Assembly (NCBI GenBank): GCA_030390025.1
Contig: CM059445.1
Coordinates: forward strand, 35,774,001 to 35,838,000
DNA length: 64,000 nt
Direction of reading: 5' to 3'
Source: Squalus acanthias
Lineage: Eukaryota
A program made the translations under genes and the position numbers. This document shows, in pieces, positions 718 through 36,655 of this stretch (position 1 is its first letter; each line of letters starts with the position of its first letter). The notes under the pieces are model-generated. The model had not been told where the DNA came from. It saw only the letters and a list, made by a program, of their open reading frames with translations, and ran no database searches.

Positions 718-939
718 GATAGCAAAATACTGCGGATGCTGGAAATCTGAAATAACAACAGAAAACGCTGGAAAAACTCAGCAGGCCAGGCAGCATCCGT
801 GGAGAGAGAAAGAGAGTTAACGTTTCAGGTCGAAGACCTTTCATCAGTTCTGATGAAAGGTCTTCGACCTGAAACGTTAACTCTCTTTCTCTCTCCACGG
901 ATGCTGCCTGGCCTGCTGAGTTTTTCCAGCGTTTTCTGT
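718..939. mobile_element. Hairpin (inverted pLTR) insertion of PLE family A
   Basis: 92-bp inverted arms (756-847 / 850-941) with a TT spacer. TSD TGCTCAATGCATAC at 704-717 and 940-953. Sequence matches the 3' end of the PLE at ~36200-36297. Confidence 0.9.
846..882 (+). ncRNA. Minimal type-I hammerhead ribozyme (family A)
   Basis: AGUU-CUGAUGA-A-AGGUC-UUC-GACCU-GAAA-CGUU-AACU: conserved core, stem II, stem I AGUU/AACU, palindromic ACGU helix III. Confidence 0.8.
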
Positions 940-2470
940 TGCTCAATGCATACCCCTTGTCCCCGAGAAGCCAACCAACTGGCTGATGCGGTGCCTCGAA
1001 AAGTTCTGCCACAGTAGTCTGGCGCAGGATAAAAGCATCGTGGCAGCTGCCAGGATAGTGGGCATTGACAGCGAGTATCAGCTGTCTGTGGTCACAGACC
1101 AACTGGACATTCAAGGAATGGAACCCCTTTCTGTTCCTGAATTCCTCGGCATTCTCACGCGGAGCACGCAAAGCCACATGCGTGCAGTCAATGGCGCCCT
1201 GCACCATGGGGAAGCCCGCTACCCTCGCAAATCCCAGAGCGCGGTCACGCTGCTTGTCTGGGGTCATGGGGAAAGAGATGAACTCTCATCTCCTTCTGAA
1301 GAGGGCATTTGTGACCTGCCGGATGCAGCAATGCACCGTGAACTGGGAGATATTGGCGAGGTTCCCAGCAGCAGCTTGGAATGAGCCAGTGGCGTAAAAG
1401 TTCAAAGCCACTGTGACCTTCACTGCCACCGACAGAGACGTCCTGGACCTCAGTTGAGGCTGCAGATCTGGCTGCAGCAGGTGGCAGAGCTCAGTGACCA
1501 CCTCCTTGCTGAATCGCAGCCTTCGCAAACACAGCTCCTCGGACATATGGATGTAGGAGAGCTGTTCACGATATACCCTGGGAGGGTAAGCTCTCCTGTA
1601 CATACGCCTGATGGCCCTCCTCCGTCTGGCCATCATTGCCACTCTCTCTCTGCGTCTCTGTATCCTCCGATTCAGCTGGAGCAGGACGACGCCCCCAATC
1701 AAAGTAATGCAAGCAAAGTAATGAGGGACAGCAACTAAAGTAGCAGCAAAGTTAGGATCAATAGGCAAAACTACCTCACAAAGCGTTGAGTCAATGTAGA
1801 AGTCTCTCTCTCTCTCTCTCCGAATCTCTCTCTCTCTCTCAGAACGAGTGGTGCATAAATGTCGACCACAGAAAAAGACAGGAAGAGGCCCCCTTTAAAT
1901 AGCGCCCCCCCCAGCCCCACAGCGATTGATAGCGTTCCAGTCTTCCGGTCGTTGGAAGCGCCAGGCGGTAAGGCAGGGGGCGCCACTCAATTTCCGCTCC
2001 GGGGCGCCACAAGGGCGTTGCACCATGGAATGACGTCACAATCTGCGCGCGCAGGTGGTCGCAGCGGTAAGTTTTAGCGCCGCTGCACAATCTCAAGTTA
2101 AGTTCTCGAGCGGCGCAAACATCGCTGCGCCCGGGCGTTAGCGGCTTTGCGCCCCATTAGCGCCCTCTTAAGGCGCTAACGGGAGGCGCAACCAACTGAA
2201 TTTTTACCCCTATGAATCCAGTATCTGACTACCTCTCCAATGACTCCAACCTCCACTACCCTACCCAGAAGACCTTTTCAAGTCTTACTCAAGCTTGGTG
2301 TGAAGAAGTGCTTCCTGATATCAGTCCTGAACATTCTTTTCACCAGTTTACGGAGATGCCTCTTGTCCTGCAGTTGAGGTTTAACTTGAAACATTGCTTC
2401 GGATGAACCTTTTCAGCTCTATTTATATCCGATAGACCTTTCTGATTTGCCTCCTTTCAAGGCTAAAAAG

Positions 2471-2920
2471 TCATAGATTCATATAAACTTACAGCACAGA
2501 AGGAGGCCATTCGGCCCCTGTGCTGGTGGCTCTTTGAAAGAGCAGTCGTGTTTAGTCCCACACCCCCACTTTTTGTCCATAACCCTGTAAGTTGCTCAAT
2601 CTCAAGAACCCATCCAACTCCCTTTCAAAATTATTTATGGAATCAGCTTCCACCATCTTTTCAGGTCGAGTGTTCCAGATCCCGACAACTCTCTGAGTGA
2701 AAACATTTCTCCTCATCTCCCCTCTAGATCTTTTTACAATGATTTTGAATCTATGATCTCTGGTTATTAACCCACTCGCCAGAGGGAATAGTTTTTCTTT
2801 ATCTACTCTATCAAAACCTCTCATCATCTTGAAAATCTCTATTAGGTCACCTCTTAACCTTCTCTGTTCCAAGGAGAACAGTCCTAACTTTTCCAACCTC
2901 TCCTCATAACTGAAGTTATT
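2471..2920 (-). mobile_element. CR1-like LINE 3' end
   Basis: ORF 2552-2896 LGLFSLEQRRLRGDLIE..FTQRVVGIWN, plus typical 3' UTR and short tandem tail. Confidence 0.9.
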
Positions 2921-5476
2921 CTAACCTTTCCTCATCACTCAGTCGTCTGACACTAGAGATGTACCCGTAACGTCCCATCTGCTCTCTTCACAGAGCAAGG
3001 AGAATCCAGTGAGCACCAGCTGCAGCCAAAGTACACAGCGTACTTGAGCACCAACTTCCACCCCCACCTAAAGCTGGGATCAGCACACAGACAGACTTTG
3101 GGAAATAGTCAGTGTTAATGAAAACGCATCAAGCTCTGGTGAGGAAGGGCTACGAACGACGGTTCTCAATGCAGGGCCAGCTGGTACAGAGCAGAATCCT
3201 GAGTGCCTCTAAGTTAGAAAGAAGTCGAAAGAATTTCCATTTATATAGCGTAAGTTGTATGATGTCACAGCTTCAGTAACTTTGCTTCCAAACAGAGGTA
3301 GCCTCACGTTAGATGCTCCTTCCACATGGTCCAGTGTGGAGGAGTCGGACACCCAGATATACACTGTCATCTCTCAATAAGTCATCTCATAGAACAATGA
3401 CCGCCTGTACTGCAGTATGCGATTGAGCACGTGGAAACACCAGTCACATCTGCAGTACACAGCTCAGTTACACAGCCTGTAAGCTCTGTCACGAACCATT
3501 CCCCAGGACATGTTATGTGAGACAGATGTCCAAATAGTTCTCCTTCATGTTTCAGAACTCCTACGCATCTAATTGAAGGACTTCCTCTGGCCCACACGTG
3601 AGATCCAGGGCCAAGCTGTGGGGTGCATTTTTAGCACAAAGAGTAACTGGATGAAGGGAGGGAGGGCTTCGGCTTATGGTGACCAATCACTGCGCACCCC
3701 GGGGGGGAAGGGAGGAGTTGGCCTCACAGCAGGACCACATCTTTGTCAAAGCCCCTTCACATGCAGACCTGTATTAAACTGTTGGTGATGAGCAAGCCTG
3801 GTAAATGGCGCTGACTTTGGGTGGCTAGAATATCAACGTGCCTGACATGACACAAGCAGCCCTGGGGAGGACCTTTCACCATGCTGAAGGCAGATGCCCA
3901 TCATACTGTGGATGAGGAAACTCTGAATTTTGGAACAATAATTTCCTAGATTTTTTTCCCTCAAACTGGCCTAAGATCTTTTTCTTTGGCTTCTCACAGG
4001 AGATTGCATGACTATTGAGGAAGTGGGGGGTGGGGGAGTCCAAGGTTGCAAGATGTCAAGGTGCCACAGGCTTGTACGTCTGTATGCTCCATGCCAGAAA
4101 TCGCAGCCCACTGAATTTACAAGAGATAAATGAAGAGATTAAGGGACACCGAGCTTAGGTTTAAACACCTGGACTTTGGAAGAAGAGAGGTAAGGAGTTC
4201 TACAGTTCTAAAGTCCTAGGAGAGCATAGGGGATGTTTTCCTCTTTGTAGCTTCTGGGGTACGTACAGTTCCCAGACAGCAAAGAGGAAACTGGGGGCGG
4301 AGACCCATTACATCAGATCTCTGCCTCACTATTTTGCCTTGGGATTTCCAGGGGTTCCTCCATGGGTGGTACTGGAACTATGCCTGCAGTAGACACTGGT
4401 CCAGCATATGAATGGTAGTAAGGCAATAACGGGTGTTGCCAGCCCTCCCACCTCACTTTCTTCCTCATCAGCTCATTGCATGCCCAAGCAGAGAAGCAGC
4501 CAAAGAAACTTGGCATTGGGGCTTGCGCCAGGACCCTCCATGTGAGGGGATTGCAAAGGGGCAGCCCAATGACCAAGGAGTCATAAAGGTGCAACTGGTT
4601 TGTAGTGCACTTTTAATGTATTGTTCACCCCTCCGCCCCCGCGCCCCCCCCCGGTTGATGTTTGGGCTCAGGCTTTCAGCAGCAGCCAGAAGGCCCTAAT
4701 GGCAGTGGCCAGGAGCATTGCTGCAGCCTCTCAGGCCCGCAGTTACGTTCATGTTTATCTCAGGGCAAGGCCCTGCCAAGATACCGACCTGCAAATGGCC
4801 TGGACCAGGAGAATCATGGACACCTCTCCCAATACAGGGCAGCATATCTCAGGTGCTCTGTATCTGCCAGGGTTCCAGAGAGATAATACGAGGATTTTTG
4901 ATTTCAACACAGTGAGGGATGGAATTGATGGATAGTCTCTGATTGCAGAGAGGGCATTGATTGGGACGAAGCTTTAATCTATCATTGGATGCAGAGATCT
5001 TTTCAAATATTTGCTCATGAATTCTCTCAGGAGACCACAAACGATGATGTAAAATCCAATTTCACTGATGGGCAAATATTAAGAGAAACAGTCTCTTCCG
5101 AAGGTGATTGTTTTTGTGGTTGCTGGAGATTCCTTGTCATTTAGCAAAATCCATACACCCTGTAAGCAACCATTTAATTATCGCCAGTGCTTTCCACACA
5201 CATTACAATCACAGAGCTGACAAATATGATGCGGTGTCATTTTCACACTGAATATTATATGTGATGACAGTTAAGTGGCATTGGGACAGCCCTGATAGAT
5301 CATATCCAGTGAGTGGAAGCTGGTGAAATATGATGACCTTTATCAATTGAATATCTACCAGTCTCTGTACAATATCAGGTCATCGTTTCCAAGACTATAG
5401 GCCTTCTGGTGGCACCAACATAACGCTTAACCCACTATAAATATGATTAATGTTTTGGGCAAGAGAAGACCCTGGT

Positions 5477-5937
5477 GTCAGACTTGTGTCAGTGGTAGCA
5501 CTCTCGTCTCTGCGACAGAAGGTCGAGGATCAAGCCCAAATCCTGAGACTTAAGCACATAATGTAGGCTAACACTTCAGTCTAGTGCTGAGGGAGTGCTG
5601 CACTGTCAGAGATGCTGTCTCAGATGAGATGTTAAACAGAGGACCTGCCTACTCTCTCAGGTGGACGTAAAAAATCCCATGGCAGTATTTCGAAGAAGAG
5701 CAGGGGAGTTATCCTGGTCTCCTGGCCAACACTTATCTCTCAACCAACATTACTAAAAAAAAAGATTATCCGGTCATTTATCTCATTACTGTTGGTGGGA
5801 CCTTTCCATGTGTAAATTGGCTGCCCCGTTTCCCTAAATTACAACAGTGACAATACTTCAAAAGTACTTCATTTGCTGTGACGCACTCTGAGATGTCCTG
5901 AGGTCATGAAAGGCGCTATATAAGTGCAAGTCCTTTC
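5477..5937 (+). mobile_element. Deu-domain tRNA-derived SINE (SacSINE1-like)
   Basis: tRNA-like head, GATGAGATGTTAAAC..GTGGACGTAAAAAATCCCATGGCA central domain, tail AAAGGCGCTATATAAGTGCAAGT. Confidence 0.85.
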
Positions 5938-6012
5938 CGTACCCTTCCAAAACACCCATCAAGTTGCCGTAGTTTTCTTTTAACCAAACTGGAGCAACTT
6001 ATAAAAAGCAAT

Positions 6013-6494
6013 AAGGTTTACTAGACTAATACCTGGAATGGGCGGGTTGTCTTATGAGGAAAGGTTGGACAGGCTAGGCTTGTATCCGCTGGAGTTTAGA
6101 AGAGTAAGAGGTGACTTGATTGAAACATATAAGATCCTGAGGGGCCTGGACAGGGTGGATGTGGAGAGGATGTTTCCTCTTGTGGGAGAATCTAGAACTA
6201 GGGGTCACTGTTTAAAAAATAAGGGGTCGCCCATTTAAGACAGAGATGAGGAGAATTTTTTTCTCACAGAGGGTCGTGAGTCTTTGGAACTCTCTTCCTC
6301 AGAGGGCGGTGGAAGCAGAGTCTTTGAATATTTTTAAGGCAGAGGTAGATAGATTCTTGATAAGCAAGGTGGTGAAAGGTTATCGGGGGTAGGCGGGAAT
6401 GTGGAGTAATCAGATCAGCCATGATCTTATTGAATGACGGAGCAGGCTCGAAGAGCCGAGTGGCCTACTCCTGCTCCTAATTTGTATGTTCGTA
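6013..6494 (+). mobile_element. CR1-like LINE 3' end
   Basis: GLSYEERLDRLGLYPLEFRRVRGDLIETYKIL followed by the 3' UTR. Confidence 0.9.
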
Positions 6495-6739
6495 ATAAAT
6501 CTTTCGCCTTTCTTTCATTGCCTCCCGGAGCTCTAGGAAATATCTGCAGCCTTTCTCCCCACCCTCCCCTTGTACCCACATGCTTTCATCCCCCGTTGGA
6601 CAGGCAGTGGAAGTGTTTTTCCGATGCTCTGAGCTCTATTCTCTGGATCTACAAGAAGTTGGGTTCCTGCTGCTTTTGGGACGGGGGAGGTCAGGCTGTG
6701 CCACTTAAGTTGGGAGCAACATGAGTTGATTTATGTTTT

Positions 6740-7013
6740 TGCCATCCCCATTTGCAACCTTTAACCACTCCTGCCTCCTACCTTAGCACAGAATGTTCCT
6801 TCAGTTCCTCCCCTCCCCCAACCCCCTCCCTCCCTGCCTCCGCCCCTGCTTAAAATCTGTTACATCTCCAGCCTTCTCCAGTTCTGATGAAGGGTCCCAG
6901 ACCTGAAACGTTAACTCTGTTTCTCTCTCCACGGATGCTGCCTGGCCTGCTGAGTGTTTCCAGCATTTTCTGTCGTTATTTCAGATTTCCAGCATCCGCA
7001 GTATTTTGCTATT
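6740..7013 (+). mobile_element. Solo PLE pLTR (family A) including 3' tail
   Basis: Similar to 36060-36297 and to the hairpin arms; ends GCAGTATTTTGCTATT. Confidence 0.8.
6880..6916 (+). ncRNA. Minimal hammerhead ribozyme (family A)
   Basis: AGUU-CUGAUGA-A-GGGUC-CCA-GACCU-GAAA-CGUU-AACU. Confidence 0.78.
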
Positions 7014-7547
7014 GAATGAGCTTATCATAGTTCGCAGTGGACCAAATGTCTTCTGAATTACTCTCAGACATTATTTTACCTTTCCCCTTTGGGTCTGTGC
7101 TTAACAGCAGTTAAGGGTGAAATAGGAAACAGAAATAGATTTTAATGACTAGTCTTTAACTGCTGCCCACACAGGAACTAACAAGCTGATTCAGAAAAAT
7201 ATCAGCTAGGAAATGACTGTCAGTGCTCCCCAGTCAATAGTTTGTCCAAAGAATGATTTTATTTTTGCTTCAACACCTTTGAAGAGGGGAATGAAAAACA
7301 TTCTTTATCCAGTTGTAAATGCGGGGCCAGTGCATGGTCAGTGAATGAAGCACAGATTCGGATGAGGTGCTGGAAGGCTGCCAGCGTGGGCAGGGGGGGG
7401 GGGGGCGTTCGAGGGCAGTCAGGAAATGCCTGGAGAAACTGGAGGGCAAACATTAAAAAAAAGCAAACCAAAAAAAAGTAGATGTCATCCCTCATTCTCT
7501 GTAACGTTGCCCAATCTCAAAATATTTAATTAAAGATTATAGCCTCG

Positions 7548-8085
7548 GAATCACAGAATCCCCACAGTGCAGATAGAGGCCATTTCGGCCCATCGAGCCT
7601 GCACCGACACATATCCCACCCTATCCCCGTAACCCCACGTATTTAATCCCCCTAACACTAAGGGTCATAGAAACATAGAATCTAGGAGCAGGAGTAGGCC
7701 ATTCGGCCCGTCGAGCCTGCTCCGCCATTCAACACGATCATGGCTGATCATCCAAATCCAGTACCCTGTCCCTGCTTTAATCCCCACAGTACACATATCC
7801 CACCCTACCCCCGTAACCCCACGTATTTAATTCCCCCTAACATATCCCATCCTATCCCCATAACCCCACATATTTAATCCCCCCTAACACTAAGGGTCAA
7901 TTTATCATAGCCAAATCAACCTAACCCGCACATCTTTGGACTGTGGGAGGAAGCCGGAGCACCCGGAGGAAACCCACGCAGACACGGGGAGAATGTGCAA
8001 ACTCCACACAGACAGTCACCCGAGGCCGGATTCGAACCCGGGCCCCTGGCACTGTGAGGTAACAGTGCTAACCACTATGCCACCG
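7548..8085 (-). mobile_element. HE1/V-type tRNA-derived SINE with duplicated tail and embedded CR1 end
   Basis: tRNA-like head on the minus strand at ~8020-8085, V-domain GGAGCACCCGGAGGAAACCCACGCAGACACGGGGAGAA, and a tail duplicated around a CR1 3' piece at ~7666-7776. Confidence 0.85.
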
Positions 8086-8339
8086 AATGACGGTGGGTGA
8101 TATCAGCAAACACTGAAATGAAGAAAGACTTGTATTTATATCGCGTCTTTCACAACCTCAGGACGTCCCTAAGCGCTTTACGGCTAATGAGGTACTTTCT
8201 GACGTGTAGTCAATTGTAATGTACAAACCGCGGTCGCCAATTTGCGAGCTCCCACAAACAGCAAGGTGATAATGTCCAGATAATCGGTTTTAGTGGTGTT
8301 AGTTGAAGGATAAATGTTGGCCTGCCTCTGTGTCTGTCA

Positions 8340-8530
8340 GTTGTGGGGAAAGGGCAACCAGCATTCCCATTCCTGACTAATATCGAGTGACCTCCCCGCT
8401 GGAAACAGCGTCTGTGAGGACGGGATCGGGTGCAGTTGTAATGGTGGAATGGCCTGCCGACACTCAATGTCGAGGATGACTGATGAAGACTTGGTCGAGT
8501 TACCTTCAAGCACCAGAACCTTCAAGAAAG
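8340..8530 (+). mobile_element. LF-SINE-like fragment
   Basis: GAGGACGGGATCGGG..GAATGGCCTGCCGACACTCAATGTC resembles the copy at 19470-19845. Confidence 0.55.
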
Positions 8531-9232
8531 AAGCGGAAAACTTAGAAAGAACCGAAAAAATGACAGATATAAATGGGTGGGGGGAGACGGACAGAAAGTT
8601 CGAGGATCTAGAAAGGTTGAATTTTGAAATAATCTCAGATCCAATCAATGTCCAATCCAAAGGAATTATTTCTTTTCCGGCCATCGTTTATCTGAGGTTT
8701 CCACGGTTCAAATTAGATTGAAATTCTCAAACAGCCAGAAGCTGCCCTGGATACTGAGCAAACAAACTTTCTTTTTCTGATCTCAACACAGTGAGTGACA
8801 GGGCAGGAGGTGGTGGTCACTGGTCACTGCAAGACCCCAGTGTAGCACATGGTAACTCACCGAGAGACTCCACTCCCCTCCTGTGCAGCATCCCCATCTC
8901 CCCAGTCTTTTCCTGTCTTTCTAACCAAGAAAGCTTGCAGGCTTCCTGCTCTCAAACAATGTGCCCAGTGTCACTCCCACATCTGGCTTCCTCTTGAGTT
9001 ACTTCTTGTACCTTCTCTTCCCCTCCCCCAAATGTGAAGCCTCCTTCCTCTTCATGTACTAGACATGCTGATGCAGGATAAAATCCGCTACACTTCTGTT
9101 TCTCTGGGGGGAAAAGTATATTCTGGCTCCACAGTTTGGAACATTCTACCTGCGCCCCTCTGCCTTGTTACTTCTCTCCCTTCCTTTTCGATTCTCTCTT
9201 AAGCCACCTCCCTTAATCACTTTTCCTCCATT

Positions 9233-9537
9233 TCACAGAATCCCCACAGTGCAGATAGAGGCCATTTCGGCCCATCGAGCCTGCACCGACACATATCCCA
9301 CCCTATCCCCGTAACCCCACGTATTTAAACCCCCTAACCCTAAGGGTCAATTTATCATAGCCAAATCAACCTAACCCGCACATCTTTGGGCTGTGGGAGG
9401 AAACCGGAGCACCCGAAGGAAACCCACGCAGACACGGGGAGAATGTGCAAACTCCACACAGACAGTCACCCGAGGCCGGATTCGAATGCGGGCCCCTGGC
9501 GCTGTGAGGCAACAGTGCTAACCACTATGCCACCGTG
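9233..9537 (-). mobile_element. HE1/V-type SINE inserted in an L2-like 3' end
   Basis: Near-identical to the SINE at 7548-8085; flanks resemble the L2 tail. Confidence 0.88.
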
Positions 9538-9660
9538 TTACCTTCTCTGGTTACCTTCCGACTTTGTGAAGTACCTTGGTACATGTTATTATGTTAAACG
9601 CACCATATAAGTGTATGTTTTTGTTGTTACCTTAATTAGAGAGAGGAAGAGAGAGAGAGA

Positions 9661-10107
9661 ACTTGCATTTATATAGCACCTTTCATAACCTCAGGACATC
9701 CCAAAGCACTTCATAGCCAATGAAGTACTTTTGAAGCGTAGTCACTATTGTAATGTGGCAGCCAATTTTCCCAGAGCAAGTTCCCAGAAACAGCAATGAG
9801 AGACATGGCCAGATAATCTGCTTTGATGGTGTTGAATGAAGGATAAATGTTGGCCAGGACACCGGGAGAACTGCTCTGCTCCTCTTTGAATAGTGCCATG
9901 GGATCTTTTACGTCCACCTGAGAGGGCAGGTGGGACCTCAGGTTAACATCTCATCTGACAAATGGCACCTGTGACAGTGCAAGATGCTCTCTGTACTGTA
10001 CTGGAGTGTCAACCCAGATTATGTGCTCAAGTCCTGGAGTTGGGGCTTCAGACCATGACCTTCTGATTTAGAGGCGAGAGTACTACCGACTGACCCAAGG
10101 CTAACAC
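9661..10107 (-). mobile_element. Deu-domain SINE
   Basis: Reverse complement of the family seen at 43686-44145. Confidence 0.85.
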
Positions 10108-10581
10108 AAAGGGGTGGTGCAGACTCAGTTCTACAGCAGGCTCCTCTAAGCAGCACTATATTGGCTGCTGAATTAATATTAACAATGAGCTTGGTATATG
10201 GTGAACTTTACATACAGATACATTGGGGTGTTGCTGTCATTGTTTTTAGGCTCTCCAATGGTTCAATTGGTAACTGCACCACCTGGTGTTGTGCTGAGCT
10301 ATACAGACCTGGACAGTCTGGTGATCTCAGACAGGACTATGGCATGCATGCTGGCCTGAGCACCTGTGGGCTAAAGAGAGGACATTCAAAATTAGGAATT
10401 GTACCTGATAGCGCTTGAGCTCTGACATAAGAAAACTACTAGGCACTTGGTCTAAGCGTTAAACAAAGCTTTAATCAACTGTTTTACAACATGGAGATCT
10501 AGTTGTGTCCTTCACTAGTTCCTGTTGAGGAATGTCCTGCGCAAGCTGGGCCCATGCCCGAGTATTTATACTCTCCCTGGA

Positions 10582-10600
10582 CAGCGCCACCTGCAGGCCA
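10582..10600 (-). promoter_or_regulatory. CTCF-like motif
   Basis: CAGCGCCACCTGCAGGCCA; the reverse complement matches the CTCF core consensus. Confidence 0.5.
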
Positions 10601-17672: not shown

Positions 17673-17881
17673 ATGCGGAGATGCCGGTGTTGGACTGGGG
17701 TGGACAAAATTGAGAGGTCGCACAACACCAGGTTATAGTCCAACAGTTTTATTTGAAATCACAAGCTTTCGGAGCTATCGATCGCCCCTTCCTCAGGTAG
17801 GAAGGGGCGATCGATAGCTCCGAAAGCTTGTGATTTCAAATAAAACTGTTGGACTATAACCTGGTGTTGTGCGACCTCTCA
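17673..17881. mobile_element. Hairpin insertion of hammerhead-bearing family B (PLE-type)
   Basis: 85-bp inverted arms (17709-17793 / 17799-17883) with a CAGGT spacer. TSD ATCTAACACATG at 17661-17672 and 17882-17893. Confidence 0.88.
17760..17799 (-). ncRNA. Minimal hammerhead ribozyme (family B)
   Basis: Minus strand reads UAC-CUGAGGA-A-GGGGC-GAUCGAUA-GCUCC-GAAA-GCUU-GUG, with palindromic AGCU helix III. Confidence 0.7.
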
Positions 17882-19845: not shown

Positions 19846-21140
19846 GGCAAAAAAAAATAGTTCCCGTCAAAAGAATATGTAAGATTCAATTAAACAAAAG
19901 ATGTCACAATTCTGGGCGTGTTCTAAGTAGGGTGGTTGAATGCAAGAGTCGATTTTCTGAGGCCGCACTGTCAGTGGGAAGCCTCGCCCACCAGCTCTGC
20001 CCCCATCGGAAAATCGCGGCGCGCTGACTGCAAGGCTGTGGGCAGCGCACTCGTCATTTCCGACAGCACCGCGACGATACCACGTACTGCCGTTACACCT
20101 GCGATTAGATTTTGACAGCGGGAAGCTATGTCGCACGCACTTCTGGGTTCCAAGGGGTTAACCGAGGCTTGTCTGTGGGCCGTGCACGGTCTGTGATTGG
20201 CCCTGTCTTTTCTCACTGCTTTGTCAGTCCTCCATTGGGCTGCAGCATCTAAGAGCACAAGCGGATGTTAACTCAGGGAAACGGCATTTTTGCAGCGGGC
20301 ATTTTAATGATTTAACAGGAACAGATTGTATAACATGTGGAAACAGAGACGGACGGATACTGCGTCTTTAGTGCTCCGTTTTAATGGTTAGAAATCCCCA
20401 GCGCAAAGAAAACAGTGCAACCGAAGGAACTTTCAGTTAAAAACACCTCACTACGGCGTCACCTGAAACCTCCATTAATACTGCAGCTGGAAAACTGCAC
20501 TTGATAAATGAGCTGATCTGCTGTGAAAGAGCGACTGTAAAGACAGGGGGGAGGTAGAAGTGTGAATAACACCACGTGAGTAGACTCACCCCAGGGACTG
20601 GGTCTGAATTCAGCCCACACTGGCGGGATGGAAGGCTCCTCTTAGCACAGACTGGGGATCAAACGTGGGATCTTCTGGTCTGACGGGTTCAGTGTTACAC
20701 CGGGCGGAGCCGTCACCTACGGGGCCTCTGGAGAAACCCTAATGCACTAATGTGGAGAGCCCCTCAAGGCTTCGGCGGCACTTCAAGACCTGTCGAACCT
20801 GCGGCAGCTGTCACCGCACTGTGAGGGTTCCCAGTTGTCTGGATGTCAGTGTGGCGACCGCTCGCCATACTCAATGCAGAGGTGGTCCACACTGCGCCTA
20901 GGTGCCCGAGATTGATGCAGGGAGCACAAAGTCATATTGTAACCCAACATCTGGCAGCCACAGGTGCTGAATCCCACTCTTGTAAGGGAATTCTTCACCA
21001 GGAGGTGATCTCCATGATGTTCAGCCCATGGGGGTGGATGCTCGTCAATTCATTCGGTGCTGTGGCTGGGACTTGCTCTGTACTCGGTTCCTGCTCAGTG
21101 CGCGCGCAAAATGTACCCACAATGCCAAATGTATAATACC

Positions 21141-21396
21141 TGTATAATAATGTATAATAATGTCTCTTAATGTCTCTTAATCTCTCCTTTTGTTCTTTCA
21201 TCCCCTCCCCCTTTTCCCAGCTTTATCCTTGCCTTAAATCTATTTGATTTCCTGCTGTTTCCAGTTCTGATGAAAGGTCTCGACCTGAAACGTTAACTCT
21301 TGTTTCTCTCTCCACGGATGCTGCCTGGCCTGCTGAGTTTTTCCAGCGTTTTCTGTTGTTATTTCGGATTTCCAGCATCTGCAGTATTTTGCTATC
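21141..21396 (+). mobile_element. Solo PLE pLTR (family A) with tail and TSD
   Basis: TSD GTATAATACC at 21131-21140 and 21397-21406; ends TTTTGCTATC. Confidence 0.88.
21263..21298 (+). ncRNA. Minimal hammerhead ribozyme (family A)
   Basis: AGUU-CUGAUGA-A-AGGUC-UC-GACCU-GAAA-CGUU-AACU. Confidence 0.75.
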
Positions 21397-26317: not shown

Positions 26318-26388
26318 GAGAGAGAAAGAGAAAGAGAAAAAGAAAGAAAGAAAGAGAGAAAGAGAGAAAGAAAGAAAGAAAGAAAGAA
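26318..26388. repeat. (GAAA/GAGA)n microsatellite
   Basis: Directly visible. Confidence 0.9.
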
Positions 26389-27251
26389 ATTGCATTTATG
26401 TCCATTGTGCCTGTACTATGTTTTAAATATGTGACACCTAAACTATTATCCCTAAGGGTTCCCTTGTGGAAGGAGTTTGTATGTTAGCTGGTTGCCAGGT
26501 TTCACTAACAACTGCTGGTATTCTGGTGACACTAGGTATCCCTGAGCGATACATTGCTAGGGCCCAGATGTGAGTTGGCCACATCTGGGACTGTTTTGGC
26601 TGACTGGGCGTTGCCTGCTTTACGAGATCTGTGCCTTAGTAGAACAGGTGCTTCTGAGGAGGGGGTGGAACGGATGGGTATCAGTCCCTTTAAATGTGTA
26701 CCTTCTCTCCCTGAGTCCTTGCAGAAGGGGTTTCGGCCCCAGGCCAATCCAACTGGCTTTTCTCAGACAGAAATTACATAAATCTATAGCGGGCTGGTGA
26801 GCAATCAGCCAGCTTTGCCTCCCCACCGCTTAAGCCCACAGCTGCTTTAGAGGATTTAGTGCTGCTCGTTTCTGACTTGGACTAAAAAAAAGTAAACATG
26901 GACTGGTTGGGCCGAATGGCCTGTTTCTGTGCCGTATATCCTATTTAATAATTTGTGAACCAGCAGGAAATTTTCCCCGAGATGTAACCCAAAGGCTGTC
27001 CACAGTTCTCATACATACGCACACCAAGTTTCACACTTGTATATTTTCATGTACATTTTACAATTTATAAAAGGAGGAGGCTACATACATAACTAACCTA
27101 CACCCGCACACCACCCTACCAAATATGAACCGACACATCAATCCTGCCCAGTGCCTGCGCCTAGGCATTTAGGGTGGCGGAGATGCTTCCTCTCACTTCC
27201 TAGCGTGGGGCAAGGCCATATCTAAAATTGCCACAACACAACATTAACTTA

Positions 27252-27748
27252 GGCACTTTACAGCCTTCCGGACTCAATATCGAGTTCAACAATTTCAGAT
27301 CATAACCTCGGCCCCTACCATATATATATATATATATATAATATATATATATTTTATCCACACTTTTGGTTTGTGCCTTTTCCCTTTTTTTTCTCTCTCT
27401 CCCCCACAGCAGCTGTCTTTCATTCTGCCAGCATTTCACACTTCACACTTCTGAGCCATCTTTTGTTTCTTAACCTGTCCTATTACCATCTCGTCTCGCC
27501 TTGAGCATCTCTTAATGTCTCTTTACTTCTCACAGACCTCCCCTTTTGTTCTTTTATTCCTTCCCCCAGCCTCCCACTTGCTTTTTTATCTGTTTCATTT
27601 CCTGCTTTTTTCTCAGTTCTGACGAAGGGTCTTCGACCTGAAACGTTAACTCTGTTTCTCTCTCCACGGATGTTGCCTGGCCTGCTGAGTTTTTCCAGCG
27701 TTTTCTGTTGTTATTTCGGTTTTCCAGCATCCGCAGTATTTTGCTATT
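27252..27748 (+). mobile_element. 5'-truncated PLE (end of GIY-YIG domain plus pLTR with tail)
   Basis: GTLQPSGLNIEFNNFRS matches 35890-35941. TSD ACAACATTAACTTA at 27238-27251 and 27749-27762. Internal (TA)n. Confidence 0.88.
27615..27651 (+). ncRNA. Minimal hammerhead ribozyme (family A)
   Basis: AGUU-CUGACGA-A-GGGUC-UUC-GACCU-GAAA-CGUU-AACU. Confidence 0.8.
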
Positions 27749-28127
27749 ACAACATTAACTTATATCTTCTTACTGTTAGTTGGAAGTACTTAACCTGTCG
27801 AAGCTCCATTCTGTCGACCTCCTCCCTCCTGCACCAGGACCAGCAAGACATGACTTGTGAAATTGTACACCACCTGGTGATGCTGGCCAACAGAGCCAAC
27901 GAGCCCTCGACATGTTTTTATAAATCATTTTGATTTAAACAACTGCAAAAAAAAAGTAATGACGGCGGGAGCTGGAAAACAAAGGATGACTCACCGTTGA
28001 AATTATATTGGACCCTATTTAATAAAAATGGTGAGACCTTAATGGAAGAGGGACCATGGGTTGTGGGGGCTGGCAGAGGGGAGACCATGGTGCTGAGGTG
28101 TTGATAGACAGCCTGGTTAAAGAACGA

Positions 28128-28438
28128 AAGAACTTGCACTCATATAGCACCTTTCACATCCTCAGGATGTCCAAAGCCAATTAATTATTTTTGAAGTGCA
28201 GCCGCTGTTGAAATTTAGGCAAATGCAGGAACCAATGTGCACACAGTAAAGTCCCATAAATAGCAATTAGATAAATGACCAGTTCATCTCTTTTAGTGGA
28301 GTTGGTTGAGGGATAAATGTTGGCCAGGAGACCAGGGACTCCCCTGCTCTTCTTTCAATAGTGCCGTGGGTCGTTTACATCCACCTTGAGCAAGCAGGTG
28401 GGGATCGCAGTTTAACGTCTCATTCAAGTGATGGCACC
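28128..28438 (-). mobile_element. Deu-domain SINE split by a CR1 insertion (resumes at 29875-29896)
   Basis: SINE sequence GGCACC|ACCTCTGACAGTGCAG continues after the LINE tail. Confidence 0.75.
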
Positions 28439-29874
28439 GTAGTATCATTATTCAAGAAGGGTAGTAGGGATAAACCAGGGAATTACAGGCCAGTGAGCCT
28501 AACATCAGTGGTAGGGAAATTATTGGAAAAAATTCTGAGGGACAGAATTAGTCTCCACTTGGAGAGGCAAGGATTAATCAAGGATAGTCAGCATGGCTTT
28601 GTCAGGGGGAGATCATGTCTGACCAATTTGATTGAATTTTTCGAGGGGGTGACTAGGTGTGTGGATGAGGGTAGTGCAGTTGATATAGTCTACATGGACT
28701 TCAGTAAGGCTTTTGACAAAGTCCCGAATGGGAGACTGGTCAAGAAGGTAAGAGCCCATGGGATCCAGGGCAACTTGGCACATTGGATCCAAAATTGGCT
28801 TAGTGGCAGGAGGCAGAGGGTGATGGTCAAAGGTTGTTTTTGTGACTGGAAGCCTGCGTCCAGTGGTGTACCGCAGGGATCGGTGCTGGGTCCTTTGCTG
28901 TTTGTAGTGTACATTAATGATTTAGATATGAATCTAGGAGGTATGATCAGTAAGTTTGCAGATGACACGAAAATTGGTGGGGTGGTAAATAGCGAGGAGG
29001 GAAGCCTCAGGCTACAGGACGATATAGACGGGTTGGTCAGATGGGCAGAACAGTGGCAAATGGAATTTAACCCTGAAAAGTGTGAGGTGATGCATTTTGG
29101 AAGGACTAACAAGGCAAGGGAATACACAATGAATGGTAGGACCCTCGGAAGGACAGAGGATCAGAGGGACCTTGGTGTGCATGTGCATAGATCCCTGAAG
29201 GCAGCAGGACAGGTAGATAAGGTGGTTAAAAAGGCAAATGGATACTTGCCTTCATTAGCCGAGGCATAGAATATAAGAGCAGGGAGGTTATGATGGAGCT
29301 GTACAAAACGCTAGTTAGGCCACAGCTGGAATACTGTGTGCAGTTCTGGTCGCCACACTATAGGAAGGATGTGATTGCATTGGAGAGGGTGCAGAGGAGA
29401 TTCACCAGGATGTTACCTGGGCTGGAGTGCTTCAGCTATGAAGAGAGACTGGACAGGCTGGGGTTGTTTTCCTTAGAGCAGAGAAGGCTGAGGGGGGACC
29501 TGATTGAGGTGTACAAAATTATGAGGGGCATAGATAGGGTAGATAGAAAGGAACTTTTCCCCTTAGTAGAGGGGTCAATAACCAGGGGGCATAGTTTCAA
29601 GGTAAGGGGCAGGAGGTTTAGAGGGGATTTGAGGAAAAACTTTTTCACCCAGAGGGTGGTTGGAATCTGGAACTCACTGCCTGAAAGGGTGGTAGAGGCA
29701 GGAACCCTCACAACATTCAAGAAGCATTTAGATGAGCACTTGAAATGCCATAGCATACAAGGCTACGGACCAAGTGCTGGAAAATGGGATTAGAATAGAT
29801 AGGGCTTGATGGCCGGCGCGGACACGATAGGCCGAAGGGCCTCTTTCTGTGCTGTATAACTCTATGACTCTATG
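28439..29874 (+). mobile_element. CR1-like LINE, 5'-truncated, with RT domain
   Basis: NYRPVSLTSVVGKLLE, DFSKAFDKV, SGVPQGSVLGP, KFADDTK; one frameshift near 29240; (ACTCTATG)n tail. Confidence 0.95.
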
Positions 29875-30484
29875 ACCTCTGACAGTGCAGCCCTCCAAGG
29901 CGAATATCTAACGCTAAAAACTGCAAATAGTAACAAGTACCAGAGTGGCAGCACGTCTGCACCAGTGGCAATGCGCACAGGGTTTGGAAAAGTTAACTGT
30001 AAATCTGTTAGGGTTTGCACAACATCCTGGGAAACCTGGACAAGCCCTTGTAAAACTACAGCGCGTACAGATTCTCCATCGCTCAGTCAAAGCATTCCCC
30101 TTCCAAAATCCCTTGGAATCACAGTATTTCACCCGAGCTTTGGGCGCCCGGTCCAGCTAATTGCCAGCTACATGCCTGCCCGGGTAGACGGTGCTGGTAA
30201 GTGGGAGCATCTGCCGAAGAGAGCCATTATTCTTTTTTTTCTGCACCTTGTGCTGAAGAAACAGGAACGAAAGAATCGAGTAGCCTCAGCAGGAGATCAG
30301 CACTGCAGCGCCGCCCTGTGTCCAGAATCTCACAATACACCAACACTGTCCGTGATTATAATTTGAGGCTTGGAAACCCTTCTGGGGTGAACTGCCTCTG
30401 GGATTCTCCCACTTCACTGCCGTAACTTTGACAAACCCAGTTATGGCAGTGGAGTGGGAGAAGCCTCAAGGAAATTCAACCACA

Positions 30485-30840
30485 AATTTATATAGCGCCT
30501 TTAACATAGTAAAACATCCCAAAGCACTCACAGGAGCGATTATCAAACAAAATTTGACACAGAGCTACATGAGCTAATAGGACAGTTGGTGGTAGGTTTT
30601 AAGGAGCGTCTTAAAGGAGGAGTGAGAGAGGCGGAGAGGTTTAGGGAGGGAATTCCAGAATTTAAGGCCTAGGCAGCTGAAGGCACGGCCGCCAATGATG
30701 GAGTGATTAAAATCGGGGATGCTCAAGAGGCCAGAATTAGAGGAGCGCAGAGATCTCGGAGGGTTGTAGGGCTGGAGGAGGTTACACAGATTGCGAGGCC
30801 ATGGAGGGATTTGAACACAAGGATGAGAATTTTAAATTCA
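30485..30840 (-). mobile_element. L2-like LINE 3' end
   Basis: Reverse complement of the family at 22250-22578. Confidence 0.8.
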
Positions 30841-31414
30841 CTCCCTTTAGTAACCGATGTCTTCGAGCGGTGGGGGGGGGTCACTGACGACCGAGCAGGA
30901 GCAGATATTCTGAATGTTTTCCGCTCCCTGGCCCGTGGATTCTGAGGCCTGTTGCGGTGCTCCTAATACCAGCCAAATCTACACAGACCAGGCCTGTGCC
31001 ACTCCACACAGGGCACTCACCCACTGGGGCACAGTATTCTGCTTAAATTCAACACTCAACAGTCAATCCTCTTTTGAAACCACCTTTCGATCAACGATTC
31101 TATTTTGCCTTGGCCACAGTTGCTGATGACGCTGGTTTGCCATGTTTTACTGCAGTGTTACCGATGGTACAGCCAAGGGTCTGGCGTGGCCTCGAGAGAG
31201 AGAGAGAGAGAGATTTCTGGTCCAATCCTCGGATCTTCCGATTCAAATTCAGAAACCCAAGAAAATGTATTGATCTGCGACACTGGGAGGAAGATTTCCC
31301 TTGTGCACAATGTATCGCAAAATTGTAAAATACATTTGTAAAAGAACAGGTTTCGGTTTTCAGAGCGATTGAACTTCCGCCATTGTTTTGACTGAGGTGG
31401 ATTGCCTGTGTCTG

Positions 31415-31438
31415 AGCGCCACCTGCTGGATTACTGCT
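31415..31438 (-). promoter_or_regulatory. CTCF-like motif with accessory module
   Basis: AGCGCCACCTGCTGG followed by ATTACTGC. Confidence 0.5.
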
Positions 31439-32057
31439 GTATAACTACCAGCCGGTGCCCTAACCCTTTCTCACCATTTCCAGCTCACTTCACTCCTTCT
31501 GCTTGAAGGCACCAAACTCTTCACGGGAAATTAAACTGAAAAAGGAGCCTAATCCTAACAGTGCGGGGAGGGGGGAGAGATTAGGGCGGTGGGGGGTTGG
31601 TGAGAGGGAGGGTCGGGGGGGGGGAGGGGGGAGGGGGCTAAGGGACCAGAAGGACACACAGGACCAGATGCAGCAAGATGGAGAGGTAGAGAAATATTGA
31701 AGGGTCTTGCAGGAGGGCAGTAACCGGGCCACGGGGAGGCGGAACCTTACAGGAATATTTTGGATGTCCTCTGCCAGTGCAGGATAATTTCCTTTCTAAC
31801 ACGATGATGAACAGGTTCACGTTACACTGGTGGCTGCAGTTATTTTAGCACAGATATTTCTACATCACCACAGTGACTACATTCCAAAAGTACTTCATTG
31901 GCTGTAAAGCGCTTTGGGACGTCCGGCGGTCGCGAAAGGCGCTATAGAAATGCAAGTCCTTTTTTAACCTTATTAATGACTACATTAAAATATTACAGAC
32001 AGGAATTTAACAGAAGCACGTGCACTGGAAGCAACAGAGAGAGAGAGTATGACAGAG

Positions 32058-32508
32058 AAAGACTTGCATTTATATAGCGCCTTTCACGACCACCGGACGT
32101 CTCAAAGTGCTTTGCAGCCAATGAAGTACTTTTGAAGTGTAGTCACTGTTGTAATGTAGGAAACGCGGCAGCCAATTTGCGCACAGCAAGCTCCCACAAT
32201 TGGCAATGTGATACTGACCAGATAATCTGTTTTAGTGATGTTGGTGGAGGGATAAATATTGGCCAGGACACCGGGGGTAACTCCCCTGCTCTTCTTCAAA
32301 ATAGTGCCATGGGATCTTTTACGTCCACCTGAGAGAGCAAACGGGGCCTCGGTTTAATGTCTCATCTGAAAGACGGCACCTCCGACAGTGCAGCACTCCC
32401 TCAGCACTGTACTGGAGTGTCGGCCTAGATTTTTGCATTCAAGCCTCTAGGAGTGGGATTACCTTCTGACTCAGAGGCGAGAGTGCTACCAACTGAGCCA
32501 CGGCTGAC
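32058..32508 (-). mobile_element. Deu-domain SINE
   Basis: Near full-length family member. Confidence 0.9.
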
Positions 32509-32601
32509 AGTACAGAGAGAGAGAGAATGTGAGCGAGAATGAGAGTGAGAGAAAGAGAGCGACCTTTCCCCGCAGAAGTGTAAATGTCACACTGGTGCTC
32601 A

Positions 32602-32629
32602 CAGTGCCCTCTGCTGGAACATTACTGCA
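32602..32629 (-). promoter_or_regulatory. CTCF-like motif with accessory module
   Basis: CAGTGCCCTCTGCTGG-AACATT-ACTGCA. Confidence 0.55.
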
Positions 32630-32845
32630 TTAACACTCCGGCATCACCAGAGGCCAGGGCTTTCCACTCCTCTGCTCCCTAGCCCACAATTTCCCGCTCC
32701 TTAAAGCGAGTGGAAAAGAGTGCAGAAGAGGGAAAACCCCCAGCCAGCGATCCGAACGAACTTTTTCTGCATCGAAGTGCAGTATTTCTTCCACTTGATT
32801 TCCACTAGGTTCTATTCTTTCCCCTCTTTTTCTTATCTCCTTTCA

Positions 32846-33225
32846 TCGGAACAGGAGGAGGCCATTCAGCCCCTCGGGCCTGCTCAGTCAGTCAGTTAGA
32901 TCATGGCTGCTCTGTATCTCAGCTCCATTTACCCGCCTTTGCTCCATATCCCTCGATACGCTTACCTAACAAAAACCTAGCGATCTCAATCTTAAAAGCT
33001 CCAATTTTCCCCCAGAAGCTACAGCATTTTGGGAGATTTCTACCACCCTTTGTGTGAAAAAGGGCTTCCTGAGTCCCCTCCTGAATAGCCTGGCTCTAAT
33101 TTTAAGATGATGGTCCCTCGTCCTTGATTCCCCCACCAGAGGAAATGGTTTCTCCGTATCTAACCTTTACACATTTTAAACACCTCGATCAGATTGTCCC
33201 TCAACATCCAAAACTCAAGGGAATT
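32846..33225 (-). mobile_element. CR1-like LINE 3' end
   Basis: GGCCATTCAGCCCCTCG..GATCATGGCTG 3' UTR signature shared with the copy at 16961. Confidence 0.75.
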
Positions 33226-33342
33226 TCCTGATGTGCCCTTCAATGGTTTCAAGATGCCCTCCGCACCTCATCTAAATAGCATTCTTCCCGTGTGAGCCTG
33301 GACAGAGAGGGACAGTCTTGAAGCGTTTGACTCAGACATTGG

Positions 33343-33602
33343 CAACCAGAGGGGAGATGAGGAGAATGTTTTTTACCCAGGAAGTTGTTATGATCTGGAA
33401 CGCGTTGCCTGAAAGGGCAGTGGAAGCAGATCCAATAGTGACGTTCCAAAGCGAATTGGATAAATACTCCAAAAGGAAATATTTGCAGGATTACGGGGAA
33501 AGAGCAGGGGAGTGGGACTAATTGGATAGCTCTTTCAAAGAGCCGGCACAGGCACAATGGGCCAAATGGCCTCCTTCTGTGCTGTCTGATTCCATGATTC
33601 TA
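33343..33602 (+). mobile_element. CR1-like LINE 3' end
   Basis: RGEMRRMFFTQEVVMIWNALPERAVEAD. Confidence 0.85.
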
Positions 33603-34430
33603 AGGTGTGACAGCTGAGTCAGGTCACCCGAAACTCAAACAAGTAACTTCCAGATGAAGTCACTGGATGAAGTTGGGTTTAATAACTCCGGCTGATTTCT
33701 CCCCATCTCAGCTGGGTGACATTGTGGTCCAGTTGTTGCTTCCTCACTGCGGCCGGCTGAGATCAGCCAACCAGCCAGATCGAGGACTGAACCTGAGGAC
33801 CTTCCAAGTCTGCGTGGCTCAGCGTCACACCATGAGACCCCCCTGGACTCATGAGACTCCTTGGGCCCACTGTCCCCTCTGACCTTCCCCTCTCTGACCC
33901 CGAACGATCAGTCCTCAGCAAAGGCCTGAGCTTCAACCCCTTATGGCCCCACGTCAATGAATTTCGAGCTCAGCACGACACTCAGCTCTTTTTCTGTCAC
34001 CTTCGTCTCCGTGCCCACTTCTTTGGCCAGGAGTCTTCCCCCCGCATGGCTGACCCTCTCGCCTGTTTTCAGAATTCTCGTTCCACCTGGACCCCTCCCT
34101 CTGGCCTCTTACCCTCTCTAGATCTTTTCATTGCGATCTGCAGGCGTGACATCGGTCGTCTCCATCTCTCTGCTCCCCTCACTCACTCCTACCTCCCTCT
34201 GAACTTGCAGCATTCTGTTCTCTCAGATCCAACCCCAACATTGTCATTAAACCTGTTGACAAGGGTGGTGCTGTTGTTGTTTGGCGAACCAACCTCTACC
34301 TTGCGGAGGCTGAAACCCAACTCTCCGACACCTCCTCCTACCTCCGCCTGGACCATGACCCCACTACCGAACATCAAGCCAAGTTTCCAAGACTGTCACT
34401 GACCTCATCTCCTCTAGAGATCTTCCCTCC

Positions 34431-35387
34431 ATGGCCGCCAACCTCATAGTCCCCCAACCCTGCACAGCCCGCTTCTACCTCCTTCCCAAGATCCACAAAC
34501 AGGACTGCCCTGGTAGACCCATCGTTTCAGCCTGTTCTTGCCCCACGGAACTGATTTCTTCCTATCTCGACTCTATTTTTTCTCCCCTTGTCCAGTCTCT
34601 TCCCACCTATATCTGCGACTCTTCCGACGCCCTCCGCCACTTTAACAGTTTCCAGTTTCCCGGCCCCAACCGTCTCCTTTTCACTATGGATGTCCAATCC
34701 CTCTACACCTCCATCCCCCACCAGGACGGCCTGAGGGCGCTCCGCTTCTTCCTTGAACAGAGGCCCAACCAGTCTCCTTCCACCACCACCCTCCTCCGCC
34801 TGACTGAACTTGTTCTCACATTGAACAACTTCTCCTTTGACTCCACTCACTTCCTCCAAATTAAAGGTGTTGCTATGGGAACCCGCATGGGTCCCAGCTA
34901 TGCCTGCCTTTTCGTGGGATACGTGGAACATTCTTTGTTCCAGTTCTACTCAGGTCCCCTCCCTCACCTCTTTCTTCGCTACATTGATGACTGTATCGGT
35001 GCTGTTTCCTGCTTTTGCCCTGAACTAGAAAATGTCCTTCATTTTGCTTCCAATTTCCACCCTTACCTCATCTTCACATGGTCCATCTCTGACTCTTCCC
35101 TTCCCTTCCTCAACTTCTCTGTCTCCATTTCTGGGGATAGGCTATCGACAAATATCCACTATAAGCCCACAGCTAACTGGACTACACTTCCTCCCACCCC
35201 ACTTCCTGTAAGGATTCTATTCCATTCTCCCAGTTTCTCCATCTCCGTCGCATCTGCTCTGACGATAACACCTTCCATACCAGTGCTTCAAATACGTCTT
35301 CCTTACTCCTCAACCGATGACTCCCCTCTACCATGGTTGACACGGCCCTCGACTGTGTCCGTTCCATTTCCCACACTTCTGCTCTAA
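34431..35387 (+). pseudogene. PLE reverse transcriptase ORF fragment
   Basis: 318-aa ORF with PLE RT motifs including YIDD; frameshifts on both sides. Confidence 0.9.
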
Positions 35388-36198
35388 CCCCTTCCCCTCC
35401 CTCCCAGAACCACGATAGGGTTCCCCTTGTCCTCACCTTTCACCCCACCAGCCTCCACATTCAATGGATCATCCTCCGCCATTTCCGCCACCTCCAGCAT
35501 GATCCCACCACCAAACACATCTTCCCCTCACCTCCCCTTTCAGCATTCCGAAGGGACCGCTTTCTCCGCCCTGGTCCTCGCCTCAATCACCCCCAACACC
35601 CCCTCCCCTCCCCTCCCCACGGCACCTTCCTGTGCAAGCGCAGGAGATGCAACACCTGCCCTTTTACTTTCTCCCTTCCCACTGTCCAGGGCCCCAAACA
35701 CTCCTTCCAGATGAAACAGAGATTTACTTGTACATCTTGCAATTTAGTATACTATATTCACTGCTCATGATGTGGTCTCCACTTTAATTGTTCGCTCCAC
35801 TCCCACTCTGACCTCTCTGTCCTCGGCCTCTTACATTGTTCCGACAAAGCTCAACGTAAGCTCGAGGAACATTACATCATCTTTCGATTAGGCACTTTAC
35901 AGCCTTCTGGACTTAACATCGAGTTCAACAATTTCAGATCATAACCTCTGCCCCTATTTTTTCACATGGCAGCTGTTGATGTTCCTGCCATTCCCATTTA
36001 CACCTCTTCCAGACTCATCTTTTGTTTCTTTACTTGTCCCATTACTATTTCCTTTTGCTTTGTACAATCATCCCTTTTGTCATTTAATCTCTCCTGCCTT
36101 CCACCCTATCACAGACCTTCCCTTTTGTTCTTTCCTCCCCTCCTCCATTTCCCTGCCCCTGCACTTGCTTAAAACCTGTTACATCTCTAACTTTTTAC

Positions 36199-36236
36199 AG
36201 TTCTGACGAAAGGGTCATCGACCTGAAACGTTAACT
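36199..36236 (+). ncRNA. Minimal hammerhead ribozyme in the PLE pLTR
   Basis: AGUU-CUGACGA-AA-GGGUC-AUC-GACCU-GAAA-CGUU-AACU. Confidence 0.75.
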
Positions 36237-36650: not shown

Positions 36651-36655
36651 TGGAA

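Follow-up and report, generated by a model that had tools for sequence, protein, structure and literature searches.

Minimal hammerhead motifs in terminal repeats of a Squalus acanthias Penelope-like retroelement of Neptune type, and where its genomic copies begin

A stretch of 64,000 nucleotides of the Squalus acanthias genome (contig CM059445.1, forward strand, positions 35,774,001 to 35,838,000), which we call the window, contains five copies of a short motif with the form of a hammerhead ribozyme. The five motifs are minimal hammerheads that lie in the terminal repeats, or pseudo-long terminal repeats (pLTRs), of a Neptune-type Penelope-like retroelement (PLE). In our reading the copies in the window are broken, independent insertions, likely without function, of an element whose genomic copies were probably made mostly from uncut RNA templates starting at stem I of the ribozyme (see also PMC2377424). 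The features are collected in Table 1.

Table 1. Features of the window, and insertions found elsewhere at the cleavage triplet
Feature	Position	Strand	Details
Family A hammerhead	846..882	+	loop TTC; predicted cut after 878; tail-less arm of a fold-back insertion
Family A hammerhead	6880..6916	+	loop CCA; predicted cut after 6912; short 5'-truncated tailed copy (~6761-7025)
Family A hammerhead	21263..21298	+	2-nt loop TC; predicted cut after 21294; short tailed copy (~21141-21396)
Family A hammerhead	27615..27651	+	loop TTC; predicted cut after 27647; 500-bp tailed copy (~27249-27748)
Family A hammerhead	36199..36236	+	loop ATC, one extra purine; predicted cut after 36232; 3' pLTR of a long broken element, tail-less
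Sixth family A copy	815..851	-	5' strand of stem I reads AGAA at the fold-back junction; tail-bearing arm
Head-to-head inverted pLTR insertion	718..939	both	~94-bp perfect hairpin; 14-bp duplication at 704-717 and 940-953
Harbinger-type DDE transposase gene	318..1894	-	DDE_Tnp_4, E=4e-20 and 2.8e-15, in two halves
Penelope-like element, 5'-truncated, frameshifted	33868..36299	+	reverse transcriptase match, Cys linker; GIY-YIG region lacks ~92 nt at 35783
Family B minimal hammerhead	50606..50642	+	same core, different stems, palindrome AGCU
Family B fold-back insertion	17716..17876		hammerhead core at 17796, minus strand
MITE inserted at GTT triplet	L394, L399, L400, L402, L403, L404, L409 (G000:C1)		GG..CC termini

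All five motifs belong to one family, here family A, and read AGTT-CTGA(C/T)GA-A-RGGTC-loop-GACCT-GAAA-CGTT-AACT on the plus strand: the core CUGANGA...GAAA...NUH with the triplet GUU is present in 5/5 copies, helix I has 4 bp and helix II has 5, and an unpaired A stands between A9 and stem II in each of them. An earlier note on this DNA had placed the five copies where we find them, with the same core, stems, loops and cleavage triplet, and had given one of them an extra base; direct reading of the sequence bears all of this out, the extra purine being that of the copy at 36199. The note overlooked the sixth copy (851-815) and the unpaired A, and two of its details have to be amended. Stem II pairs in general, but the 2-nt loop of the copy at 21263 cannot close a 5-bp stem, and only 4 bp are closable there. 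Helix III, described as the palindrome ACGU only, is indeed palindromic and loop-less, but the palindrome has 6 nt (AACGTT), and A14 can therefore pair with U17. The first pair of helix II (10.1-11.1) is A-U or G-U in family A, and G-C in a second family of the window, family B.

A structural descriptor, one of the checks that had been proposed, recovers the five family A copies together with two copies of family B, and matches nothing in any of 100 control windows simulated with a first-order Markov model. The other proposed search, with the covariance models of Rfam, went the opposite way: no hammerhead family is among the 17 matches to the window at E<=5. GUU is listed among the cleavable triplets, and is slower than GUC.

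The carrier of the motif is best seen at the end of the long broken element of the window, which is about 90% identical to full-length copies elsewhere in the genome. In these full-length copies (L221, L222, L223 and L224), the motif stands upstream of the open reading frame (ORF) and again about 3.2 kb downstream, that is, in both pLTRs. One natural genomic copy, L188:5866-8613(-), has an uninterrupted frame of 916 amino acids with reverse transcriptase (RT) and GIY-YIG domains; the matches to RVT_1 (E=2.8e-5) and GIY-YIG (E=5.4e-4) are both below Pfam's curated cut-offs, and the protein has 569 homologues, the best named one, from Chiloscyllium, being 71% identical. Since this frame is uninterrupted, the family has young, possibly active copies. 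A C-x4-C-x2-C linker precedes the GIY-YIG region, as in the CX2-5CxxC motif of the Neptune clade; such a linker is common to Neptune and Nematis elements (PMC8557442), and, together with the fact that Neptune and Poseidon are the clades reported in vertebrates, it points to the label Neptune-type. Copies end at two fixed 3' points 36 nt apart, and 15 of the 17 pairs of copies less than 2 kb apart are on opposite strands. These features are hallmarks of endonuclease-positive PLEs (PMC8557442, PMC3846280). The identification as minimal PLE hammerheads, already made in the earlier note, thus holds: they are of type I and borne by pLTRs, and are of a kind reported to cleave weakly, as multimers (PMC4209133).

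The family is large. The strict motif has 29,381 exact matches in the 3.71-Gb genome, against 0 for the reversed control, and an anchor downstream of it has 79,242 matches, so that there are at least 79,242 copies of the family; extrapolation from 11 copies in 360 kb of random stretches suggests about 110,000. By the same yardstick the window is somewhat enriched, with 6 copies where 1.96 are expected (P=0.015, or P=0.049 when the inverted pair is counted as one event); the 200 kb flanking the window hold 7 copies.

The copies in the window are independent insertions of different subfamilies, because they best match different full-length copies and three of them carry target duplications of their own: besides the one in Table 1, these are a 10-bp duplication at 21131 and 21397 around the copy at 21263, and a 14-bp duplication at 27238 and 27749 around the copy at 27615. 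For the copy at 6880 no target duplication of 7 nt or more was found. The interval 718-939 is a single insertion of two head-to-head arms, sited in the Harbinger-type transposase gene. Spacings between the five copies are 6.0, 14.4, 6.4 and 8.6 kb, with unrelated DNA between them. The five copies are themselves ordinary. We also considered that they might be non-LTR retrozymes, and rejected this identity on the grounds that there is no tandem repeat, that spacings are of 6.0-14.4 kb, and that target duplications are separate.

Elsewhere in the genome, G000:C26:1942582-1976093 and C194 form a tandem array with units of about 2.4-2.6 kb, every one of which includes a family A end; should the cores be intact, this array is a natural multi-ribozyme context.

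Has the ribozyme been under selection? The answer depends on what is compared. Between families A and B, whose endonucleases are about 35-40% identical, 8 of the 11 base pairs are changed on both sides, or 7 of 9 in helices I and II alone, while the core is identical; the palindrome goes from ACGU to AGCU, and the triplet of family B is CUC or CUU. In the alignment used for covariation, which has 10 sequences from two lineages, 99.1% of the cells pair, the single unpaired cell being that of the copy at 36199, whose row is shifted one column in stem II. As far as sequence comparison goes, this shows that the catalytic fold was selected between families, and it is the decisive evidence of constraint.

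Dispersed copies of family A give another picture. Among the 154 copies examined, 92 span the motif without having been picked by it, and 58 of these have an intact core. Three sites vary strongly among copies, namely N7, the purine that faces U, and loop II; none of these major sites hits the core or breaks a stem, and all fall within the 6 tolerated positions of the 37 (P=0.0026, with classes set after seeing the data). Mismatches, however, are about as frequent in the core (20/902, or 2.2%) as in the flank (68/2532, or 2.7%; Fisher P=0.54), with 41/1350 in the stems, CpG sites being excluded from the core and stem counts, and conservation of the downstream flank is close to that of the motif itself. 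The variation that the earlier note called structure-preserving is so in that its strong sites are at tolerated positions and the stems covary between families, with the core fixed; but the core of dispersed copies is no better kept than its flanks. Dispersed copies, judged by these counts, drift, and selection acts in active source elements only.

Part of the constraint may be coding, because an open frame crosses the motif and continues into the ORF of the element: copies with U at N7 have an ATG in this frame, and the A/G site at +8 falls on a silent position of a Lys codon. It is thus natural to ask whether the family A motif is still catalytic at all, or is kept as a promoter, a splice acceptor-like signal and a set of first codons. 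Besides the frame and the equally conserved downstream flank, U17, the R-U pair at 10.1-11.1 and the alternative helix described below all predict weak cleavage. Yet family B keeps an identical core and a palindromic helix III with different stems, which coding or promoter constraint would not produce, and the main polymorphisms of family A, as we saw, spare both core and pairing. We find the loss of catalysis quite improbable.

Folding was computed with a nearest-neighbour model without tertiary contacts, and is a rough guide. In the lowest-energy monomer predicted for each of the five copies, UGAYG of the core pairs with CGUUA across the cut site, and in 164 nt of context the predicted probability of stem I is at most 0.007. 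Family B is predicted to fold with stems I and II, and is for this reason a better candidate than family A for activity in vitro. In family A, N7 is nearly always C or U, both of which keep the predicted inhibitory UGAYG/CGUUA helix; in family B it is C, G or A. The inactive fold itself may be selected in family A.

These predictions bear on the proposal of the earlier note in which dispersed copies pair through the ACGU palindrome, in trans or within a host pre-mRNA, form double hammerheads and cut the transcript at a relevant rate. There is something to be said for it: within 30 kb there are four solo copies on one strand, each of the five cores is intact, as are those of many sampled copies, and cleavage of dimers of such motifs has been reported (PMC4209133, reviewed in PMC6765202). 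Short, nearly identical contigs cover unique parts of the window at depth 3-4, from runs that are only guessed to be RNA; contigs from such runs also cover the element and the repeats of the window, and are uninformative on ends, strand and cleavage. Finally, solo neighbours 2-20 kb apart are on the same strand in 13 of 16 pairs (P=0.02, uncorrected, in one of four distance bins), which could mean selection against one orientation in genes, a point that would count against our own reading. The orientation signal is unstable, because the 100-300 kb bin shows the opposite trend, with 3 of 16 pairs on the same strand.

The rest of the evidence goes against cutting in host transcripts. The ACGU duplex is predicted to contribute only -1.7 kcal/mol, and a double hammerhead has a predicted energy of -8.5 kcal/mol against -19.4 for two monomer ensembles, about 11 kcal/mol less favourable. 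The copy at 846 is locked in a hairpin of about 94 bp on either strand, the core of dispersed copies has no excess conservation, and little activity has been reported even where the units of a dimer or trimer are adjacent (PMC4209133). A search for a host exon in the window, among frames of at least 45 amino acids outside known repeats, found no Pfam match above the curated cut-off in 294 of the 358 stop-to-stop frames, a search that short exons can escape, and a literature search limited to papers outside subscription found nothing on cutting of host pre-mRNA by PLE hammerheads. With independent insertions, neutral decay of the core and inactive predicted folds, the proposal is not supported by our analysis: dispersed copies likely do not cut host transcripts, cutting at a relevant rate is highly improbable, and the five insertions of the window are likely without function of their own.

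If the ribozyme does not work where the copies lie, the copies may still record what became of the RNA from which they were made. We number positions so that C3 is 0; the predicted cut is just before +29, and a start at +29 is expected when cleaved RNA is copied. Of 134 copies that were not picked by the ribozyme, 97 have no close inverted partner: 61 of them start beyond -100, 2 in the interval -100..-15, 28 in -14..+11, 1 in +12..+25, 4 in +26..+31, and 1 later. Genome-wide, patterns that require three non-element bases upstream give 438 starts at -7, 1,455 at -4, 960 at -1, 113 at +21 and 220 at +29; their maximum falls on the opening base of stem I. Ratios between these counts are approximate, because the patterns span different bases and the loci inspected are the first listed, on the largest contigs. 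Among those first loci, solo starts number 20/30 at -4, 17/30 at -1, 9/20 at +21 and 14/30 at +29, and target duplications were found in 10/30, 9/30, 1/20 and 3/30 of them, respectively. Uncut starts outnumber any cleaved fraction by at least 10:1, which leaves room for a small one. Two further controls, at +33 (1,067 matches) and +45 (322), were discarded as unusable, being dominated by CT slippage and by a tandem array.

Because short insertions peak at stem I and few begin at the cut site, transcription would start at stem I, and the templates would be mostly uncut. The peak coincides with the word CCAGT, and in 3 of the 6 pLTRs inspected the word TTAAAA is found about 31 nt upstream of the A in CCAGTT; we take the two, as consensus words, to be initiator-like and TATA-like.

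Several observations weigh against this reading. The TATA-like word is absent from the other 3 of these 6 pLTRs. The peak is broad: the 438 starts at -7 exceed the number, roughly 110 by a hand estimate, that chance microhomology to -4 starts would give. Fold-back junctions make up 10/30 of the sampled -4 starts and 10/30 of the -1 starts, and, since this is about a third, self-priming of the cDNA contributes. Before curation, starts at +29 are about twice those at +21. Cleaved RNA that is degraded or circularised could leave no trace in DNA, and a transcription start deduced from DNA ends alone is an indirect one.

The last points lead to another explanation, in which the ribozyme cuts multimeric element RNA efficiently in vivo, the unit RNA is religated into circular templates, as in the model proposed in PMC4209133, so that insertions hold the entire motif even though cleavage is obligatory, and the pile-up at stem I comes from stalling or self-priming of the RT. 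Full-length copies do have two direct ribozymes about 3.2 kb apart, the covariation between families shows a selected catalytic fold, and in several fold-back junctions -4 is linked to +29 by way of the stem I complement. But stalling at a hairpin should stop the RT on its 3' side, near +20 to +32, and the ends pile up past it; in the element of the anole, core mutants left insertion in vitro unchanged (PMC11167929); and Naiad elements spread without a ribozyme (PMC8557442). We therefore regard efficient cutting with circular templates as unlikely, though less so than the other alternatives weighed here.

A spliced leader was considered as the origin of the -4 starts, because CAG|TTCTGA and CCACAG|ATG resemble splice acceptors; it was rejected, as the upstream flanks share no sequence and target duplications abut the start. 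Splice acceptor-like signals do flank the ribozyme (27600-27672 and equivalents), with a pyrimidine tract and CAG just 5' of the core; a second one has a branch-like TTAAC at the cut site, then a tract and CAG before the second ATG. No evidence of splicing was found for these signals: none of the contig joints inspected (15/935 and 15/639) is a GT..AG intron within the element.

Starts at the cut site have a mimic. The control pattern at +25 gave 1,311 matches, almost all of them preceded by GCCC-like ends. In 7 of the 20 loci fetched, both halves of the motif are present around an insert of 744-1,743 bp with terminal inverted repeats and a duplicated GTT, which shows CpG decay in some loci; most of the other loci fetched end in the same kind of terminus. 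From their sequences, several Harbinger-like families of MITEs (miniature transposable elements with inverted repeats) insert at the hammerhead GTT and duplicate it, with about 1,300 junctions genome-wide; a 3-bp target duplication is typical of PIF/Harbinger (PMC9710019). This insertion at the GTT triplet is a new observation. An ordinary target preference is likely, rather than targeting aimed at the ribozyme: 41 other MITE termini yield R-A-V-W-Y-NNN as the preferred target, a pattern to which the motif conforms on either side and of which sampled DNA has one instance per 1,356 bp.

These junctions matter because they mimic starts at the cut site. Of the four sample copies with starts at +26..+31, one is preceded by the left half, another ends in a MITE-type terminus, and a third comes after an inverted fragment; of 7 solo loci at +29 that were rechecked, the left half lies upstream in 2, and MITE-type termini occur in 2 others. 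In this genome, a copy with an apparent start at the cut site should first be checked for its missing left half, and only afterwards be taken as a trace of cleavage.

Taken together, the data are consistent with the following course of events. The promoter in the pLTR would start transcription at or near the A of AGUU, so that the ribozyme forms the first 37 nt or so of the element RNA, and the predicted alternative helix UGAYG/CGUUA would keep it mostly inactive. By analogy with the anole element, occasional cutting would take place only in the two-ribozyme RNA of the element, aided by the element protein. Reverse transcription would begin just downstream of the ribozyme and run off the 5' end of uncut RNA, leaving stubs of 95 and 131 bp, and stub cDNA that folds back would give hairpins such as that at 718-939. 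The ribozyme would be kept by selection in active source elements only. Uncleaved RNA is the main template of the anole element, which has two internal RT starts, whose cleavage needs protein, and in which no reads end at the cut site (PMC11167929); the low multimer cleavage of minimal hammerheads extends even to adjacent dimers and trimers (PMC4209133).

One might go further and conjecture a protein-gated switch at +1: the element protein would refold the ribozyme, cutting off the cap and the first in-frame codons, and could fire intact copies in host transcripts in the germline. We give this only a slight chance; if true, a dead repeat family becomes a genome-wide RNA-cutting system with tens of thousands of intact copies. 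The reading through uncut templates is of interest in its own right. The role of the hammerhead in PLEs is described as a question still open (PMC8557442, PMC11167929), and a family of roughly 100,000 copies is a large fossil record of the RNAs that were copied, one that points to uncut RNA from stem I; its start peak is a precise place to look for the transcription start.

Some other features of the window deserve mention. The Harbinger-type gene at 318-1894 (minus strand) is nearly open apart from the fold-back PLE insertion that splits it at 718-939. An older inverted pair of family A ends, about 80% identical and without a recognisable core, lies at 40730-40796 (minus) and 40882-40961 (plus). 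Fragments at 28310-29793 (plus), 36608-37243 (plus) and 60821-61924 (minus) resemble, by eye, reverse transcriptases of CR1/L2-type long interspersed elements (LINEs), and several families like short interspersed elements (SINEs) also fill the window.

The closest known systems are the minimal hammerheads of PLEs (Cervera and de la Pena 2014, PMC4209133), which in fishes have been reported from Neptune, Poseidon and Xena elements. Family A is like them in its type I topology, short helix I and loop-less helix III, in the palindromic 15.2-16.2 and the unpaired base between 9 and 10.1, and in the position in pLTRs, with mostly solitary genomic copies and some opposite-strand pairs. It differs by its first helix II pair, A-U or G-U where G-C is usual, by the U at position 17, and by its far larger copy number, with 29,381 exact matches where coelacanth and Xenopus have about 4,000-9,000 (PMC4209133). 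The text of that paper and one of its supplements mention no shark, and a search of literature outside subscription gave no report on one.

The Poseidon element PAc of Anolis carolinensis (Frangieh et al. 2024, PMC11167929) also has a ribozyme that extends over the beginning of the ORF, two 3' ends separated by the length of one tail, and a genomic pattern that fits a mainly uncleaved template. Family A, known here from its sequence, differs from it by the Neptune-type Cys linker and by the 5' pile-up at stem I, which is not described for PAc in the parts of that paper drawn on. The non-LTR retrozymes (bioRxiv 10.64898/2026.07.22.740005) likewise have type I hammerheads related to pLTRs, and occur in the only chondrichthyan sampled; however, they form tandem arrays with a ribozyme per unit, whereas family A consists of dispersed truncated PLE ends with target duplications. 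With the units of endonuclease-positive PLEs (Craig et al. 2021, PMC8557442; Arkhipova et al. 2013, PMC3846280) family A shares the 5' truncation, the pLTR, the inverted truncated neighbour, the optional tail of 30-40 bp and the palindromes at inverted junctions, as well as first codons and TATA/Inr-like words within the pLTR: compared with what these papers describe, it differs only in scale and in the sharp 5' boundary at the ribozyme.

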